A DNA stretch of 64,000 bases from an uncultured Clostridia bacterium (GCA_947646415.1 CANSGN010000004.1:3743-67742), one strand, 5' to 3'. Shown: positions 8,450-61,880, counted from the stretch's first letter. Program-made: numbers and translations. The notes: generated by a model not told the origin, from the sequence alone.

Positions 8450-10798
8450 TTAATTCATTTTAGAATCTTTATTTATCTGCTCTCCGCCTAGACAATAAAT
8501 AACATACGCGCCTGTTGAACTATCCCAATCATACTCTCTGCTGATTTCCAACCATTCGGATTTTGTACCAACAAACTCAATACGTGTAAGACTTGTACAA
8601 TTTGCAAATGCACCCATCGATATACGAGTAACGCTGTTGTATATTTTGATAGACTTTAAGTTTGTGCATCCGTTAAATGCATCTGTGCCTATTTCTACCA
8701 CACCGTTTGTAAGTTCCATACTTTCCAAACTAGAGCATCCATAAAATAATCTTTCTCCAATAACGGATATGGAATTTGGCAAAGTAGCCGTTCTTAAACT
8801 CAAGCACCCTGCAAACACGCCGTTACCTAATTCAACAATGCTGTTAGGCAATTTTAACACACCAGCACCCGATTGAATGTCACTGCTTGACAAAACAATA
8901 CTAGTAATTTTGCTGCAGCCTGCAAATGCTCTGTCGCCAATACTTATTACACTATTTTCAGGAATTATTATATTTTCAAGGTTTTCGCAGTTATTAAAAG
9001 CATAGCTGTTGATAATTTTTGTTTTTTCATTAATTTGTATATCGGTCAAACCAACTTGTTTAGCTTTTACAAAAACCAAATATTGGTTATTGTTGTTACC
9101 TAAATACAAACCATTATCAAAAATATTATAATTCAAATTATCACAACCAAAAAATGCGTTCAAACCAATCTTGCTTATACTATTTGGCAAAGTAATGTTT
9201 GTCAAACTCTTGCAGTTGTAAAAAGCGTTTGCAGGGATTTCATTGCCGTTAGTAACAGTCACATTTTCAAGCATATACTTAGGCAAAACCTCTATTACAT
9301 TGGCACTAACAGTAGCATCGGTAATAGGACAGTTATTAAATACTCCACTTCCAATACAAGTCAAGTTGTTTGATAAATTAACATAACTAACATTTATACA
9401 ATCTTCAAACGCACATTGTCCCAATGTTGTTACTGTGTTAGGAAGTTCTACTTTTGTAAGCAACTTGCAACCTGAAAAAGCAAAATCGCCTATACTATTT
9501 AATCCGTCATTAAACTTTATGTCGGTTAAATATTCACAGCCGTTAAAAGCATTCATACCAATAATTCTTATAGTTTTTGACAAAATAACTGTTTCAAGAA
9601 AATTACTGCCACTAAAAGCAAAATCTTCAATTTCCGTACCGCCGGTTATTTCCACCTGAACCAAATTTGCTTTATCTACATAGGATATTGCGGTAGCAGG
9701 CATTTTTACTTCACTTATAGGACAATTTTCAAAAGCATCATTGCCTATCGTTGTTACACCATTTGATATTTCCAAATTGGAAAGTTCCACACAATTATAA
9801 AAAGCTTCGGCACCGATTGTAGTAATGCTGTTAGGCAATATCAAATTGTTAAGTTTGCTACAACTTGTAAAAGCGTTGTTATTAATTTGAATTACGCTAT
9901 CGGGAATTGTTATATTTACAAGTTCCACACAATCGGAAAAAGCTCTTTCCCCTATAGTCCTTACACTATCCGGCAAATTGATTTGCTTTAAGCTTGAGCA
10001 ATATCTAAATGCCCTGTTAGCAATTTCCACAACACTGTTAGGCAACGATATATTAGTTAATTTGTCACAACCGTAAAACGCATACGGACTTATTATTGAC
10101 CCGCCCAATATTTTAACATCTGTCAATGCGGGCGAAATATCTTGCGCATTTTGAGAATAGTTGCTTGCTCCAAAAATATAGCCGAAATGAGAATTTGCAT
10201 CTGTACCGTTAGCCGCGAAATTTTTATTTGCTCCTACAAAAGGTATTACCATTTTTGATATTTTATTACAGTTTTCAAAAACACCGTATCCGATTTTTTC
10301 CACTTTATCGGAAATAGTCACATTTTCCAAGTTTGTACAACCGCGAAAAGCATAGTCATCTATATATTTAACACTATCGCTAACCGTTACGCTTTTTACA
10401 AAATCACAATTTTTAAAGGCTTCACGCTCAACACCTATTACGGGAGTACTGTTGTGTATGCTAGGAATTATTACCTCACTTACAGTCTTGTTTAAACCGG
10501 TCACTATATATGCCTTTTCGTCACTGTCATAAGTGTAGTCAAATTCGTTTTTCATATATTTACATATACTGCAAACATCATTACCATCCAAAAATTTATG
10601 CGCCTCTGCTTCCTCTACTTTATCGCAAATATCGCAAGCCAACCAATGTTTTGAACTATCCTTTGAATAACTCATGGAACAAATGTGTTCAGGCTCTTTT
10701 GTAATACATGCAGACAAGGAAATTAAAGATAAAACTACTAATATACTGCAAGCCAATACTATTGCAATATTAAAAAGTAACATCTTTGATTTTTTCAT
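8450..10798 (-). CDS. BspA-like leucine-rich-repeat surface lipoprotein
   Basis: 782 aa. Signal peptide ending in lipobox LSAC, then a Cys-rich stretch (CxxC pairs), then more than 20 tandem ~23-aa LRR units of the BspA/LRR_5 type (IPxSVxxIGxxAFxxCxxL). Confidence 0.85.
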   Translation of the reverse strand: MKKSKMLLFNIAIVLACSILVVLSLISLSACITKEPEHICSMSYSKDSSKHWLACDICDKVEEAEAHKFLDGNDVCSICKYMKNEFDYTYDSDEKAYIVTGLNKTVSEVIIPSIHNSTPVIGVEREAFKNCDFVKSVTVSDSVKYIDDYAFRGCTNLENVTISDKVEKIGYGVFENCNKISKMVIPFVGANKNFAANGTDANSHFGYIFGASNYSQNAQDISPALTDVKILGGSIISPYAFYGCDKLTNISLPNSVVEIANRAFRYCSSLKQINLPDSVRTIGERAFSDCVELVNITIPDSVIQINNNAFTSCSKLNNLILPNSITTIGAEAFYNCVELSNLEISNGVTTIGNDAFENCPISEVKMPATAISYVDKANLVQVEITGGTEIEDFAFSGSNFLETVILSKTIRIIGMNAFNGCEYLTDIKFNDGLNSIGDFAFSGCKLLTKVELPNTVTTLGQCAFEDCINVSYVNLSNNLTCIGSGVFNNCPITDATVSANVIEVLPKYMLENVTVTNGNEIPANAFYNCKSLTNITLPNSISKIGLNAFFGCDNLNYNIFDNGLYLGNNNNQYLVFVKAKQVGLTDIQINEKTKIINSYAFNNCENLENIIIPENSVISIGDRAFAGCSKITSIVLSSSDIQSGAGVLKLPNSIVELGNGVFAGCLSLRTATLPNSISVIGERLFYGCSSLESMELTNGVVEIGTDAFNGCTNLKSIKIYNSVTRISMGAFANCTSLTRIEFVGTKSEWLEISREYDWDSSTGAYVIYCLGGEQINKDSKMN

Positions 10799-10932
10799 TG
10801 CGTCCCGCCCCTCTTCTATTATATTAAAAAATTGTGTTTTTGTTATATTTTCTTTAGCTTTTGTGTAATTTTTTTAAAGTATTTTAAGATAAAAAATTTA
10901 AAAAAATACTTAAAAATAAAATTAATATTATA

Positions 10933-10961
10933 ATTATACAAAATACCTACACATTTGTCAA
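10933..10961 (-). promoter_or_regulatory. Consensus sigma-A promoter for the LRR lipoprotein gene, abutting palindrome S1
   Basis: Minus strand reads TTGACA (10961..10956), a 17-nt spacer, then TATAAT (10938..10933). Confidence 0.5.
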
Positions 10962-10969
10962 CCAAAAAA

Positions 10970-10999
10970 GTGTCAGAAATGGTATACTTTTTCTGACAC
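10970..10999. repeat. Palindrome S1 (candidate serine-recombinase crossover/binding site)
   Basis: GTGTCAGAAATGGTATACTTTTTCTGACAC. One of 4 copies in the window. On the minus strand it is followed by TTTTTT. Confidence 0.7.
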
Positions 11000-11105
11000 A
11001 AAAATACATTGGAAAAAATTGTCTTAAATTGTATAATTATGTTATTTGCATAAAATTTATACACAAATTTATAACTAACAATAATAAAAGTGTGCAAAAA
11101 GCTAA

Positions 11106-11135
11106 GTGTCAGAAAAAGTATACATTTCCTGACAC
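11106..11135. repeat. Palindrome S2 (candidate serine-recombinase crossover/binding site)
   Basis: GTGTCAGAAAAAGTATACATTTCCTGACAC, 136 bp from S1. On the plus strand it is followed by TTTTT. Confidence 0.7.
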
Positions 11136-11280
11136 TTTTTACACTTGTTGTAAAATACAAAATAAATGTTTTGCAATTTTCGGATAAAATGCTAAAATAT
11201 AAAATATGTGTCGTTAAATTTGAGAAAACTCAAATTTAAAAAAAGCTATCGCTTTTTCTTGATAAATCAAGCCGACATAG

Positions 11281-11349
11281 TTTGAATTAACAATCGCCGA
11301 TGTCAAATGCCACTTCGTGTCGCTTGACTACTGCTTCCGATATTATAAA
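11281..11349 (+). repeat. 69-bp direct repeat copy A upstream of the recombinase gene
   Basis: TTTGAATTAACAATCGCCGATGTCAAATGCCACTTCGTGTCGCTTGACTACTGCTTCCGATATTATAAA. About 84 percent identical to copy B by my count. Contains TGTCAA..17 nt..TTGACT. Confidence 0.6.
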
Positions 11350-11428
11350 CTATAGAAGGTAAATTTTAATTAGCATTAAAATTTTATATTGCTGTCGCAA
11401 TATAGCTTGTTATCACAAGTACTTCTAA

Positions 11429-11497
11429 TTTGAATTAACAATCGCTGATGTCAAATATCCCTATGGGCTGCTTGACTACAGCTTCCGATAATATAAA
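11429..11497 (+). repeat. 69-bp direct repeat copy B immediately upstream of the recombinase RBS
   Basis: TTTGAATTAACAATCGCTGATGTCAAATATCCCTATGGGCTGCTTGACTACAGCTTCCGATAATATAAA, 148 bp downstream of copy A. TTGACT-16nt-TAAAAT is a promoter-like arrangement. Confidence 0.6.
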
Positions 11498-11521
11498 ATA
11501 TGTACAATTAGGAGAAAAAAT

Positions 11522-12133
11522 ATGAAGATTTATGCTTATGCAAGAGTATCAACCAGCGACCAAAATCTTTCAAGACAATTAGATGCTTTTAAAAAATTCG
11601 GTGTACGCAAAACCAATATTTACACCGATAAAAAAAGCGGAAAAGATTTTGAAAGAATCAACTATAAAAAACTTATAGATAAGCTTAGTAAAGGCGATTT
11701 ATTGGTTATAAAATCTATTGACCGATTAGGCAGAAATTACACTGCCATAATTGAGGAATGGCGAAATATTACACATATAATCGGCGCGGATATTTGCGTT
11801 TTGGATATGCCCTTACTTGACACACGTTCAAAATACGACTCGCTTACAAGAAAATTAATATCAGATATAGTACTGCAAGTTTTGTCTTTTGTTGCGGAAA
11901 ACGAACGCGTAAACATAAGAGAGAGACAAAAAGAAGGTATTGCTGCAGCTATGAGACGAGGCGTACAATTCGGAAGACCGCGAAGGCTTTACGACGACGA
12001 TTTTATTAATACCATACAAAAATTCAAAAATAACGAAATAACTACTCATCAAGCGGCCACTCATCTTTCGGTAAACAGAACAAGTCTTTATTTTCATTTA
12101 GATAATTTAACAAAATTAGGTTTTATTTATTAA
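11522..12133 (+). CDS. Small serine recombinase (resolvase/invertase family)
   Basis: 203 aa. Catalytic N-terminus MKIYAYARVSTSDQNLSRQ (Ser10), SIDRLGRN, E-helix ENERVNIRERQKEGIAAAMRRGVQFGRP, C-terminal HTH. RBS AGGAG. No adjacent transposase or phage genes. Confidence 0.9.
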   Translation: MKIYAYARVSTSDQNLSRQLDAFKKFGVRKTNIYTDKKSGKDFERINYKKLIDKLSKGDLLVIKSIDRLGRNYTAIIEEWRNITHIIGADICVLDMPLLDTRSKYDSLTRKLISDIVLQVLSFVAENERVNIRERQKEGIAAAMRRGVQFGRPRRLYDDDFINTIQKFKNNEITTHQAATHLSVNRTSLYFHLDNLTKLGFIY

Positions 12134-43534: not shown

Positions 43535-44332
43535 TTACACATTTTCCAAGGCATCCCTCAAATATTGCGGTATACTAATTGGATCAGACCCTAGCATATA
43601 AATAAATTTACCCTCTCTATCTTCGTCACCATATATAAATGTACAAATCAAATCATTTCCTACAATCTTGATTGTAAAATCTTCAAAATCACTACCTTTA
43701 ATACCATGATATATTCCATCGTCTTTCTTTTCAAAAAGCAAATCAAGGTCATTTTCGCCGAATATCATTAAATCATATATATTTATAATATCTTTAGGTG
43801 CGGAAACTTCTGGTAGCATTTCTATATAAAAATTGAGATAATCGCAAATATCATCGATACTTTCCAACTTTAAAATCTCCCAACGACTCAAATCTGCACT
43901 ATCAATAGGACCATAAAAATAGTTTGCCTTATTCTTTTCTGTAATTTCTAAGTATTTTACAGTTTCTAGATTACTAAACATACAAATATTTCCATGAATT
44001 GTGATTTTAATATCGCTATAAGCGGGTTGATAAAATGATTTTGACGAACTAGCTTTCCATACATTCATATATTCCTTTATAGTAGCATTCGGGCTTATAA
44101 TGTTTTCCTCATTATTGCCACCATCGTTTCCGCCATTTTCAATGTCACTATGATTTCCGCCATTTTCGGTATTCCCACCTTGGTTATTTCCTCCACCGAT
44201 AATTTCTTCACTATCATTGCCATTGTTTCCGCTGTTGTTGCCACCTACAGTTCCATCACAAGCAACAAGTGCCATACATGCTATTATCGCAATAACAATA
44301 ATTGCAACAATCAAAAAAACTTTTTTCTTCAT
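43535..44332 (-). CDS. Hypothetical surface lipoprotein with Gly/Asn-rich linker
   Basis: 265 aa. Signal peptide with lipobox LVACDG, a ~60-aa GGNN-rich low-complexity linker, then a ~170-aa domain of unknown family. RBS AAGGAG. Confidence 0.6.
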   Translation of the reverse strand: MKKKVFLIVAIIVIAIIACMALVACDGTVGGNNSGNNGNDSEEIIGGGNNQGGNTENGGNHSDIENGGNDGGNNEENIISPNATIKEYMNVWKASSSKSFYQPAYSDIKITIHGNICMFSNLETVKYLEITEKNKANYFYGPIDSADLSRWEILKLESIDDICDYLNFYIEMLPEVSAPKDIINIYDLMIFGENDLDLLFEKKDDGIYHGIKGSDFEDFTIKIVGNDLICTFIYGDEDREGKFIYMLGSDPISIPQYLRDALENV

Positions 44333-44402
44333 AAAAACTCCTTTTTATCCAATTAGTATTTATTGATAAAATTTCAAATTTAAACGGTCATTATGCATTT
44401 AT

Positions 44403-44432
44403 CTGTCAGAAAAGGTATACTTTTTCTGACAG
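44403..44432. repeat. Palindrome S3 (candidate serine-recombinase crossover/binding site)
   Basis: CTGTCAGAAAAGGTATACTTTTTCTGACAG, 70 bp upstream of the 43535..44332 start codon. Confidence 0.7.
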
Positions 44433-44440
44433 TTAATCAG

Positions 44441-44469
44441 TTGACATAAAAATTTATTTGTTGTACAAT
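44441..44469 (+). promoter_or_regulatory. Near-consensus sigma-A promoter inside the S3-S4 cassette, pointing away from the lipoprotein gene
   Basis: TTGACA (44441..44446), 17-nt spacer, TACAAT (44464..44469). Confidence 0.45.
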
Positions 44470-44538
44470 AAATATATTATAAAAGGATAAAATTTTAAAA
44501 AATATAACCTTTATTTATACAATTTACACAAAATCAAA

Positions 44539-44568
44539 GTGTCAGAAAAAGTATACTTTTTTTGACAC
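44539..44568. repeat. Palindrome S4 (candidate serine-recombinase crossover/binding site)
   Basis: GTGTCAGAAAAAGTATACTTTTTTTGACAC, 136 bp from S3. On the plus strand it is followed by TTTTT. Confidence 0.7.
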
Positions 44569-44707
44569 TTTTTGCACAATATGAAAAATATCTATATAAC
44601 AAATGCTCGTAATTTATTATTACAGTACATTAACAAGCAAATCATTGTTTCATAAAAGTACAAAAAGATATGCAAAGCATACCTTTTTGTTTAAAAAATT
44701 TTAAATT

Positions 44708-44796
44708 TGGCGGAAGCGATGAGATTCGAACTCATGTATCCTGTTGGATAACCGCATTTCGAGTGCGGCTCGTTATGACCACTTCGATACGCTTCC
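44708..44796 (-). tRNA. tRNA-Ser (anticodon CGA)
   Basis: 89-nt cloverleaf folded by hand. Acceptor GGAAGCG/CGCTTCC, 3-bp D stem, anticodon loop CTCGAAA, long variable arm TATCC/GGATA, T loop TTCGAAT, encoded CCA. Confidence 0.9.
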
Positions 44797-60219: not shown

Positions 60220-60407
60220 AAAAGCATTATAGCATATTTTTTTTGACTTGTAAATATTTTTTTAATATTTTATTATATTTTAATATAAAGATAATAAAAC
60301 CAAATTTTATATCTGCAAATAACAAAGCTTACAATCTTAAAATAGATATTGCTTTTTTTAGTTTTATATGGTATGATAAAATTGTAAAAAGCATAGGGGG
60401 AAATAGT

Positions 60408-61127
60408 ATGGAAGAGGAAGTAAAAGACAAAATTTGCGGGCATGCAAAGCCAATGGATAAAAAGAAAAAAATCATCATAATTACGGCAACGGCCAGTGCA
60501 CTACTTGCAGTAATACTTGGTTTTCTCATTTGGGGGTTAACATTCAAAGCAGGCGGACTTGTAAACAGAAAAGTAATTTGTGTTGAAGACAGCACTATAT
60601 TTAACGGCGACAGTATTACTATACCTGTTAAAATGAAACAAGGATTTTATACTCCGTCTCATCAGGTTTTTTATTCGGAAAAATCTATTTCAGAGCTTTG
60701 CGAACTTGCTAAAAATTACGATAGTAATCTAAATTATGAGATTCACAACAACAAAGCCTATCTTTATAAAGTAAAATCGGATAAAGTAATTGCAAGAGCT
60801 GTTTTAAGCAAACATGATGCAATATATGATAACCTTAATTATACTTTGCAAGATTTATATGTCGAAGGTATAATATTTCCTCTTTATTTAACTGAAAAAT
60901 TCTTTGATGAGGAAATTACATTTAGCGACACTACTTACAGTTGGTATGCAATTTCTTTTATGACAATAGACGAACTTGTAAATTGGCTTGATAGCACAGG
61001 ACTTTATAAATTGGAAATCAATACTCAAAAAGACACTGTAATTGTAACGGATATTGAAAAAGACAGTCCTAAAGCTCAAATTTATTTTAACGGGAACCTA
61101 ATTGCTGTAAAAGCAATTTACAATTAA
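60408..61127 (+). CDS. Hypothetical single-pass membrane protein, tandem paralog 1
   Basis: Start chosen at ATG 60408 (MEEEVKDKICGH) after GGGGGA. TM helix IIIITATASALLAVILGFLIWGL. C-terminal ~150 aa nearly identical to 61197..61880. Confidence 0.55.
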   Translation: MEEEVKDKICGHAKPMDKKKKIIIITATASALLAVILGFLIWGLTFKAGGLVNRKVICVEDSTIFNGDSITIPVKMKQGFYTPSHQVFYSEKSISELCELAKNYDSNLNYEIHNNKAYLYKVKSDKVIARAVLSKHDAIYDNLNYTLQDLYVEGIIFPLYLTEKFFDEEITFSDTTYSWYAISFMTIDELVNWLDSTGLYKLEINTQKDTVIVTDIEKDSPKAQIYFNGNLIAVKAIYN

Positions 61128-61196: not shown

Positions 61197-61880
61197 ATGA
61201 CAAAAGAAACAAAAAAGGCTATTTGGATACATGTGATTGTTTTCAGTGTAATTGCAATCGTAGTACTTGGCATATTCTTTCCAATTATAGTTACTAACAA
61301 TATGGATAGAGCAAATTCTAAGCAAATATGCATTGTAGACCGCTCTATTAAAATAAGTGGCGAACAAATATTTATTCCTGTCAAAATGAAAAATGGTTTT
61401 TCTACCCCTACTCATCAAAAATTTCATTCTGATTTAACAATTTTACAATTATGCGAACTTGCCAAAGATTACGATAGTAATCAAAATTATGAGATTCATA
61501 ACAACAAAGCCTATCTTTATAAAGTAAAATCAGACAAAGTCATTGCAAGAGCTGTTTTAAGCAAGCATGATGCAATATATGATAACCTAAATTATACTTT
61601 GCAACATTTATATGTCGAAGGTATAGTATTTCCTATTCATCTAACTGAAAAATTCTTTAATGAGGAAATTACATTTAATGACACTATTTATAGTTGGTAT
61701 GCAATTTCTTTTATGACAATAGACGAACTTGTAAACTGGCTTGATAGCACAGGACTTTATAAATTGGAAATCAATACTCAAAAAGACACTGTAATTGTAA
61801 CGGATATTGAAAAAGACAGTCCTAAAGCTCAAATTTATTTTAACGGAAGCCTCATTGCTGTAAAAGCAATTTACAATTAA
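61197..61880 (+). CDS. Hypothetical single-pass membrane protein, tandem paralog 2
   Basis: 227 aa. RBS GGGAG. TM helix IWIHVIVFSVIAIVVLGIFFPIIV. Followed by terminator AATCACTCT/AGAGTGATT plus T7 (61901..61929). Confidence 0.6.
   Translation: MTKETKKAIWIHVIVFSVIAIVVLGIFFPIIVTNNMDRANSKQICIVDRSIKISGEQIFIPVKMKNGFSTPTHQKFHSDLTILQLCELAKDYDSNQNYEIHNNKAYLYKVKSDKVIARAVLSKHDAIYDNLNYTLQHLYVEGIVFPIHLTEKFFNEEITFNDTIYSWYAISFMTIDELVNWLDSTGLYKLEINTQKDTVIVTDIEKDSPKAQIYFNGSLIAVKAIYN

Follow-up and report, generated by a model that had tools for sequence, protein, structure and literature searches.

Does the short region at positions 44403-44568 of a 64,000-nucleotide stretch from an uncultured Clostridia bacterium (GCA_947646415.1, CANSGN010000004.1:3743-67742; the whole stretch is referred to as the window) form a static intergenic space, or is it a DNA segment whose inversion turns a neighbouring lipoprotein gene on and off? 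The region consists of two palindromes (S3 and S4) that enclose a predicted promoter pointing away from the lipoprotein gene LP2. We consider it likely, with a probability of roughly 0.8, that this region (locus 2) is an inverton that phase-varies LP2, that the recombinase encoded at 11522-12133 likely serves it in trans, and that both belong to a multi-locus regulon. The orientation in which the promoter faces away from the gene is designated OFF and the opposite orientation ON. The features of locus 2 are as follows.

44403-44432: S3, the gene-proximal recombination site, a 30-bp palindrome (CTGTCAGAAAAGGTATACTTTTTCTGACAG) with a conserved core of 28 bp (44404-44431) and without a T-run on its gene side
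44433-44538: invertible insert of 106 bp, in the OFF orientation in the window
44441-44469, plus strand: predicted switch promoter TTGACA-17-TACAAT, its -35 hexamer 8 nt from S3, directed away from the lipoprotein gene
44503-44520, plus strand: TATAAC-N6-TTATA block within the insert, conserved in an alignment of 28 cassettes
44539-44573, plus strand: S4, the distal recombination site (GTGTCAGAAAAAGTATACTTTTTTTGACAC, 44539-44568), followed by TTTTT (44569-44573)
43535-44332, minus strand: LP2, the lipoprotein gene proposed to be controlled, 265 aa, with the lipobox MKKKVFLIVAIIVIAIIACMALVAC and a Gly/Asn-rich linker
44708-44796, minus strand: tRNA-Ser, convergent with the OFF-state promoter

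S3 and S4 are near-perfect palindromes that are mutually complementary at 90 % over 31 nt and thus form an inverted repeat. If up to three mismatches are allowed, the 28-bp core occurs four times in the window, compared with 0.00 occurrences expected from 100 shuffles. The switch promoter agrees with the consensus at 11 of 12 positions, and the minus strand between S3 and the LP2 start codon contains no promoter-like site of at least 9/12. The LP2 open reading frame (ORF), whose ATG lies 70 nt from S3, is predicted from its sequence to encode a signal peptide and a lipobox; the protein had no match in Pfam or NCBIfam. An Rfam scan of the whole window matched only two tRNAs, leaving the cassette and the 76-nt repeats of locus 1 (see below) without a known RNA family.

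A preliminary description of this DNA had recorded the same anatomy, and its particulars were reproduced in full: the sequences and coordinates of S3 and S4, their start-to-start spacing of 136 bp and the 106-bp insert, the 265-aa lipobox ORF starting 70 nt from S3, the near-consensus plus-strand promoter that points off LP2 toward S4, TTTTT and a tRNA on the opposite strand, and the weakness of all promoter candidates between S3 and the ATG. It had further proposed that the cassette inverts, that the window represents the OFF state and that a flip would aim the promoter at LP2, and it had named a single fixed orientation across related strains as the observation that would speak against this idea.

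Both orientations of the cassette occur in public assemblies

Assemblies were found as public contigs encoding exactly the neighbouring proteins, and ten of these contigs span cassette 2. In four of the ten (L021, L022, L025, and L028, from samples ERZ12802922, ERZ12802742, ERZ12802834, and ERZ12802746) the cassette is flipped, with a TTGACA-17-TATAAT promoter facing the lipoprotein gene. Contig L027, from ERZ12802917 in the same ERZ128027xx-029xx accession series, has the orientation of the window. Related strains thus show both orientations, and because the LP2-facing form of the segment exists in these four assemblies, the window can be read as the OFF state, as the preliminary description had anticipated.

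The flipped and unflipped forms differ precisely by the inversion. Between L022 and L027 the flanks are identical at 300/300 bases on one side and 300/300 on the other, and the 107-bp insert matches at 107/107 positions as the reverse complement and at 34/107 in the same orientation. A BLAST comparison of the window with L022 likewise found the flanks to be collinear at 94 % identity and the 165-bp cassette to be reversed at 91 %. A second cassette of the window, cassette 1 at locus 1, also occurs in two orientations. Its flanks are 97-100 % identical between L079, a contig of the metagenome-assembled genome (MAG) MGBC162486, and L132, both orthologous to locus 1, and its insert is 100 % identical as the reverse complement; compared with the window, L079 has the internal promoter of cassette 1 aimed at the lipoprotein gene LP1 rather than at the recombinase gene.

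The same comparisons place the crossover within the palindrome, since the outermost base of each 30-bp site moves together with the insert, whereas an asymmetric C19 in the proximal site and a T5 variant in the distal site stay in place across ON and OFF forms. These data are compatible with a cut at the central TA, without pinpointing its exact position.

In the strain represented by L021, L022, and L027 the LP2 orthologue has at least 818 aa (L022 4243-6062; L027 2215-3561). Its first 264 aa are approximately 91 % identical to the product encoded in the window, and the later segments weakly repeat the C-terminal domain. The possibility that the gene downstream of the cassette differs between strains was rejected, as the longer products represent one and the same protein in extended form. 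A search of metagenomes of the Joint Genome Institute (JGI) for the exact locus-2 junction pattern gave no match, and the organism seems to be absent from this collection at the exact-match level.

The candidate recombinase and locus 1

The preliminary description had noted the lack of a recombinase gene at locus 2 and had proposed that the enzyme encoded at 11522-12133 acts in trans. No recombinase gene was found within approximately 5 kb of locus 2. The candidate gene is located at locus 1, which comprises the following features.

11522-12133, plus strand: candidate invertase, a small serine recombinase of 203 aa, whose translation shows the active-site motif YARVSTSDQ, a GRPR arm and a putative helix-turn-helix (HTH) at the C-terminus
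10970-10999: S1, recombination site flanked by divergent promoters
11000-11105: invertible insert of cassette 1, 106 bp, with TTGGAA-17-TATAAT at 11009-11037 (plus strand), here facing the recombinase gene
11106-11140, plus strand: S2, recombination site, with TTTTT
10933-10961, minus strand: P1, a perfect TTGACA-17-TATAAT predicted to drive LP1, outside the S1-S2 pair and 8 nt from S1
10834-10856, minus strand: S0*, a decayed third palindrome (remnant AGAAAA-TATA-ACA), 136 bp from S1
8450-10798, minus strand: LP1, a 782-aa BspA-type leucine-rich-repeat lipoprotein (PF13306, E = 1e-136; lipobox)
11278-11353 and 11426-11501, plus strand: two 76-nt repeat units with a period of 148 bp, 83 % identical, upstream of the recombinase gene

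The recombinase matches PF00239 over residues 3-148 (E = 1.7e-28; 100 bits, cutoff 23.3), and residues 174-202 at its C-terminus give a sub-threshold match to HTH_20 (16.4 bits, cutoff 27). Its nearest relatives of solved structure are Sin/Bin3 (E = 2e-25), followed by the gamma-delta/Tn3 resolvases (approximately 5e-22) and Gin (7e-13). With 51.7 bits against a cutoff of 272 it falls outside the Mpi family as modelled by NF009949 (NCBIfam). A tblastn search with the protein itself found a single copy in the window, and it is the sole recombinase detected there; a tblastn search of the window for tyrosine recombinases with a XerD probe found nothing significant (best E = 0.24), a negative of little weight in comparison with a full Pfam annotation of the window.

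Small serine recombinases bind as dimers to half-sites that carry an A-tract and surround a 2-bp centre, as in hix and res site I. The sites described here have a corresponding layout, in which two half-sites of 13 bp, with TGTCAG as the outer block and an A5 tract, surround a 2-bp centre. In the window, L079, and L132 the recombinase gene adjoins an invertible site pair. Upstream of a 55 % identical homologue in L077 (a rabbit MAG), a TGTCAG(G/T)AAAAGTATAC pair with an ON-facing promoter is located 131 nt from the gene, its sites being 105 bp apart. Directly upstream of the 60 % identical homologue in L104 lies a pair that keeps the centre AAAAGTATACTTTT, differs in its outer bases (CCGTAG...) and encloses a TTGACT-18-TATAAT promoter, and for a 65 % homologue in L101 the sites have a GTAC centre. 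Across these homologues the outer half-site bases change with the divergence of the recombinase protein. An action of the 203-aa recombinase in trans on locus 2 is plausible, albeit not proven.

The two loci had been regarded in the preliminary description as copies of one cassette architecture. This holds for their geometry, which is identical (S1 and S2 start at 10970 and 11106, giving the same 136-bp spacing and 106-bp insert), and both contain a common unit of palindrome, 8 nt and -35 hexamer, which gives rise to an inverted match of 87 nt linking 10923-11009 with 44393-44479. Functionally, however, they are not identical copies. The promoter of cassette 1 is weaker than P1 and faces either the recombinase gene (window, L132) or LP1 (L079); cassette 1 is a predicted toggle of one promoter between the recombinase gene and LP1. 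S1 and S2 both have T-runs on their outer sides, which may limit read-through into the recombinase gene. The leader of LP1 (10799-10999, minus strand) aligns with the ON form of cassette 2, including the site, the promoter and a TTACACAAAA motif. As the palindrome remnant sits exactly where a gene-proximal palindrome would be expected, 136 bp from S1, LP1 probably has a former inverton that became locked ON by decay of one site, with S1 being shared with the active S1-S2 cassette. An intact three-site tandem of this kind is found in L111 (819-1116), where three palindromes at 135-bp spacing lie between divergent genes and two cassettes share the middle site.

Each of the 76-nt repeats upstream of the recombinase gene contains a promoter-like TTGACT-16-TAAA(C/A)T site, that of the second copy lying just before the ribosome-binding site of the recombinase, and a TGTCA-N19-TGACT inverted repeat that overlaps the -35 hexamer and might be a recombinase-binding site for autoregulation. 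The 148-bp unit is present in one copy (L012, L013, L014) or two (window, L011), and four Logan contigs start inside the recombinase-proximal 76-nt copy. Elsewhere in the window, a 300-nt direct repeat (60620-60919 and 61373-61672; 87 % identical, 753 bp apart) overlaps the adjacent plus-strand ORFs 60243-61127 and 61197-61880, which are probably tandem paralogous genes.

The palindrome family and rival readings

A scan of one genome per species with the pattern TGTCANNAANNGTATACNNTTNNTGACA retrieved 71 loci, and a metagenome scan with a generic pattern added 51 further loci. The resulting 122 loci contain 190 sites, of which 147 are paired. The hosts in the genome scan are almost all MAGs labelled uncultured Christensenella, Christensenellaceae, Clostridia or Eubacteriales, with gut sources in mouse, human, rabbit, and goat. 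At locus 1 the window (GC content 34 %) shares 92-94 % identity with MGBC162486 and therefore stems from a close relative of that MAG.

The central GTATAC of the sites is almost invariant, with A15 and T16 present in 108/108 sites. Palindrome positions 1 and 30 show no conservation, so the functional core measures 28 bp. All 74 spacings fall at 83-84, 93-97, 105, 125-127, 134-138 or 146 bp and none between, which corresponds to 8, 9, 10, 12, 13 or 14 helical turns (10.5 bp) within approximately 0.25 turn. A near-consensus TTGACA-17/18-TATAAT, its -35 hexamer 5-9 nt from one palindrome, occurs in nearly all AT-rich cassettes, and the promoter layout of locus 2 recurs in nearly all family cassettes of 125-146 bp. 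States and genes were counted for the 36 cassettes that have one clearly adjacent gene (genome-scan loci and the window). The adjacent gene encodes a lipobox in 21 of them, and the cassettes comprise 22 in the OFF state, 8 in the ON state and 6 without a recognisable promoter.

Perfect GTGTCATCAAGGGTATACCCTTGATGACAC palindromes in L144 (3809-3836) and L106 (1013-1040) are located 115 nt upstream of a gene for a 30-34 % identical serine recombinase; they share the ends and the GTATAC centre of the family sites, in a high-GC host and a quite different context. Further sites occur in bins labelled Coriobacteriaceae or Bifidobacteriaceae (L042, L046, L059, L063, L080, L081, L091, and L099, bin H07675-L1_cleanbin_000006; L050). 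The pairs in them are more closely spaced (84, 95, 125 bp), and a TTGACA/TATAAT promoter could not be recognised. Either Clostridia contigs were mis-binned here or the host range is wider.

Contigs tend to break at the sites. Among the LP2-carrying contigs listed, eight of ten end inside S3 (seven Logan contigs and one SPAdes contig), L014 (a 275-kb NCBI contig) and L138 end at S2, and 28 of the 190 family sites have a locus end no more than 200 nt away. The seven Logan contigs, which derive from different runs (L002, L003, L006-L010), all start at the same S3 base, window position 44428; L026 ends inside the terminator hairpin of the tRNA.

Several observations weigh against the inverton reading of locus 2. 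The Logan contigs stop 3 nt deeper inside than the first position that distinguishes ON from OFF, at which a branch would be predicted for k = 31. A simple k = 31 branch at the inversion junction does not account for this offset, which makes the Logan breaks only suggestive of an orientation-mixed population. The 265-aa allele of the window was found either OFF (window, L001/L020, L005, L024) or in contigs broken in S3, and the ON forms all come from a 94 % identical strain. A mixture within one population would follow only from the contig breaks and the ON/OFF differences between samples, and promoter, terminator and lipoprotein status are predictions from sequence. On the side of the enzyme, a syntenic, 69 % identical homologue in L100 has no obvious equivalent site pair, so no simple one-to-one rule connects enzyme and site, and the recombinase-site link is consistent but circumstantial.

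One rival accepts the switch as real but attributes its flipping to a recombinase encoded outside the window, the 203-aa protein being a resolvase or a local regulator that binds similar palindromes near its own gene. The window covers only 64 kb of the genome, the protein is nearer to the resolvases and Sin than to Gin, and the L100 homologue fits such a role. In addition, published Clostridia inverton groups are mostly tied to tyrosine recombinases, which also provide the most significant Clostridia-dominated link between invertons and invertases (PMC11892184). However, the gene adjoins a site pair not only in the window, L079, and L132 but also in L077 and L104, the outer half-site bases shift as the protein diverges, and the (weak) XerD probe detected no tyrosine recombinase in the window. 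The site anatomy, moreover, is typical of the crossover sites of serine recombinases such as hix and res site I. On balance we regard an enzyme from outside the window as unlikely.

A different question concerns the RNA made in the OFF state. S4 and the following UUUUU are predicted to form a terminator, with a 16-bp RNA stem (-17.6 kcal/mol) preceding the U5, whereas the hairpin of S3 in the direction of LP2 (-14.2 kcal/mol) is not followed by a U-run. Of the 36 cassettes, 25 have a T-run (5 or more T in 8 nt) after the palindrome that faces away from the gene, and 7 have one on the gene side. In the simplest reading, the OFF promoter would yield a transcript of approximately 98 nt that stops at the distal palindrome, and the ON transcript would read through. 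The S4 terminator would thereby shield the convergent tRNA-Ser, a design that looks like insulation. The preliminary description had offered a small RNA (sRNA) of approximately 97 nt, divergent from the lipoprotein gene, as its alternative. Cells probably do produce an RNA of this kind; the hairpin with U5 and the systematic T-run on the non-gene side indicate that it is better understood as a terminated by-product of the OFF state, which may nevertheless have a function.

The sRNA alternative can be put more strongly, namely that the main product of the OFF cassette is a functional sRNA of approximately 98 nt with its own targets, so that the element toggles between sRNA and lipoprotein. It would account for a strong promoter (44441-44469) followed by a good predicted terminator and for the TATAAC-N6-TTATA block, which lies in the transcribed part and is kept across paralogous cassettes, although this block could also be part of a leader or a site for an accessory protein. 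The remainder of the transcribed part, however, is AT-rich and poorly conserved among the paralogous cassettes, Rfam provided no match, the identical RNA segment becomes the 5' leader in the ON state, and insulation of the neighbouring genes explains the T-run asymmetry more economically. A functional sRNA as the main product thus appears rather improbable.

The inversion itself could be questioned if the orientation differences were fixed strain polymorphisms, or artefacts of assembly at a short inverted repeat. It is true that the evidence is at the level of assemblies and not of reads, that inverted repeats can confuse assemblers and that, for the allele of the window itself, all assemblies that span the cassette are OFF. 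Yet ON and OFF forms exist that share 600/600 flanking bases and identical inserts, which implies a very recent flip, and the ON form was assembled independently in four samples. The repeats of 28-30 bp are shorter than reads and than the largest k-mers typically used by assemblers. Furthermore, a second locus is flipped between assemblies of different projects, the states within the family are mixed (22 OFF, 8 ON) and many contigs break exactly at the sites. We consider polymorphism or artefact very unlikely as the explanation.

Least probable are palindromes that merely serve a dimeric regulator as operators, or act as bidirectional terminators, within an intergenic region that is itself static; their position 8-9 nt upstream of -35 hexamers and their capacity to form hairpins would fit, and the sites may additionally serve as terminators or binding sites, but the inversion of the insert with exact reverse-complement identity at two loci rules out this role as the sole explanation.

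Proposed mechanism and relation to known systems

In the mechanism proposed for the inverton, a serine recombinase, most likely the 203-aa protein acting in trans, would bind both 28-30-bp palindromes as dimers, which would synapse over the 136-bp (13-turn) loop. The enzyme would then cut the central TA of GTATAC and swap the strands, and the 106-bp insert would flip. In the OFF state, as in the window, the promoter would fire away from LP2 and its transcript would end after approximately 98 nt at the S4 hairpin and U5; in the ON state, it would read through S3, where no U-run is present, and through a leader of approximately 163 nt into LP2. Locus 2 would be one member, and S1-S2 another, of a multi-locus switch regulon in Christensenellales-like gut Clostridia.

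Since the half-sites and the central TA are both symmetric, the site has no polarity. Deletion should thus be chemically as feasible as inversion, and another factor must therefore favour one over the other. Given how strictly the spacings follow the helical repeat, loop geometry is the candidate for this factor, perhaps together with a bending protein. A more far-reaching model, in which a polarity-free and enhancer-less serine invertase has inversion selected by loop geometry, the palindromes double as OFF terminators and the invertase controls itself via its own switch, is tentative and in its entirety less likely than not. If it applied, an invertase promoter under its own switch (cassette 1, L077, L104) would provide population-level feedback over the lipoprotein regulon.

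Six internal palindromes are solitary, without even a degenerate partner (L096 4947; L056/L120; L052; L097; L154), and the one in L096 is located 66 nt upstream of a promoter-less lipoprotein gene. Solitary palindromes could be scars of deletion between polarity-less sites.

The closest functional parallel is Mpi of Bacteroides fragilis, described in PMC12632263, with reference to Coyne et al. (2003), as a single global DNA invertase that inverts capsular-polysaccharide promoters elsewhere in the genome. Mpi is a serine recombinase according to NCBIfam NF009949, and in both systems a gut commensal would start or stop expressing a surface molecule with each flip. In contrast to Mpi, the recombinase described here scores below the cutoff of that family, the host belongs to the Bacillota (Clostridia), and the promoters are of the sigma-70 type (TTGACA/TATAAT) rather than of the Bacteroides type. 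The sites are individually near-perfect palindromes of 28-30 bp, centred on a symmetric TA. They bound very short, helically phased segments (84-146 bp from centre to centre), and the predicted targets are lipoproteins instead of capsule operons.

Similarities also exist with Hin, Gin, Cin, and Pin, which are likewise small serine recombinases with palindrome-like sites whose half-sites have an A-tract and surround a 2-bp centre (hix/gix). The DNA-binding domain of Hin contains a GRPR arm motif before its HTH, the 203-aa recombinase has such a motif ahead of its putative HTH, and the Hin switch of Salmonella flips the promoter for a surface antigen. Unlike these enzymes, the recombinase is closer to Sin/Bin3 and the gamma-delta resolvase and falls outside their subfamily, and the central dinucleotide of its sites is a symmetric TA without polarity, in place of an asymmetric centre. 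A Fis enhancer like that of Hin would furthermore have little room, if any, in segments of 84-146 bp, and the candidate enzyme is proposed to act at many unlinked loci instead of on a single segment next to or including its own gene.

The resolvases of the Tn3/gamma-delta and Sin types are the closest solved relatives by sequence, and there too the recombinase gene adjoins its sites. Crossover at res site I likewise takes place in a palindrome whose central dinucleotide is symmetric, as it is in S1-S4. The outcome observed here, however, is inversion, a res architecture of three subsites is absent, and the sites are chromosomal, present in multiple copies and wrapped around promoters. Invertons reported in PhaseFinder-type surveys resemble the present ones in having inverted repeats around a promoter next to surface-related genes, with both orientations detectable (PMC11868660, PMC11892184). 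Full-text searches covering part of the literature found no paper on this motif, enzyme or lineage. The system works like Mpi but differs from it in its sites, in the clade of its enzyme and in its host lineage, and is not categorically new.

With its 28-bp symmetric site, a loop of approximately 136 bp and a 203-aa enzyme, the system would be a compact test bed for the choice of inversion over deletion without polarity or an obvious enhancer, and as a switch and terminator within approximately 170 bp it is a possible part for synthetic biology. Such sites fragment metagenome assemblies, and the orientation seen in any MAG is a snapshot only. Christensenellales-like Clostridia are abundant, largely uncultured gut bacteria, and surface variation by DNA inversion has been worked out mainly in Bacteroides. 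If the proposed reading is correct, these Clostridia vary their surface lipoproteins via a dedicated multi-locus DNA-inversion regulon, and lipoprotein switching of this kind would bear on immune evasion, phage resistance and colonisation.

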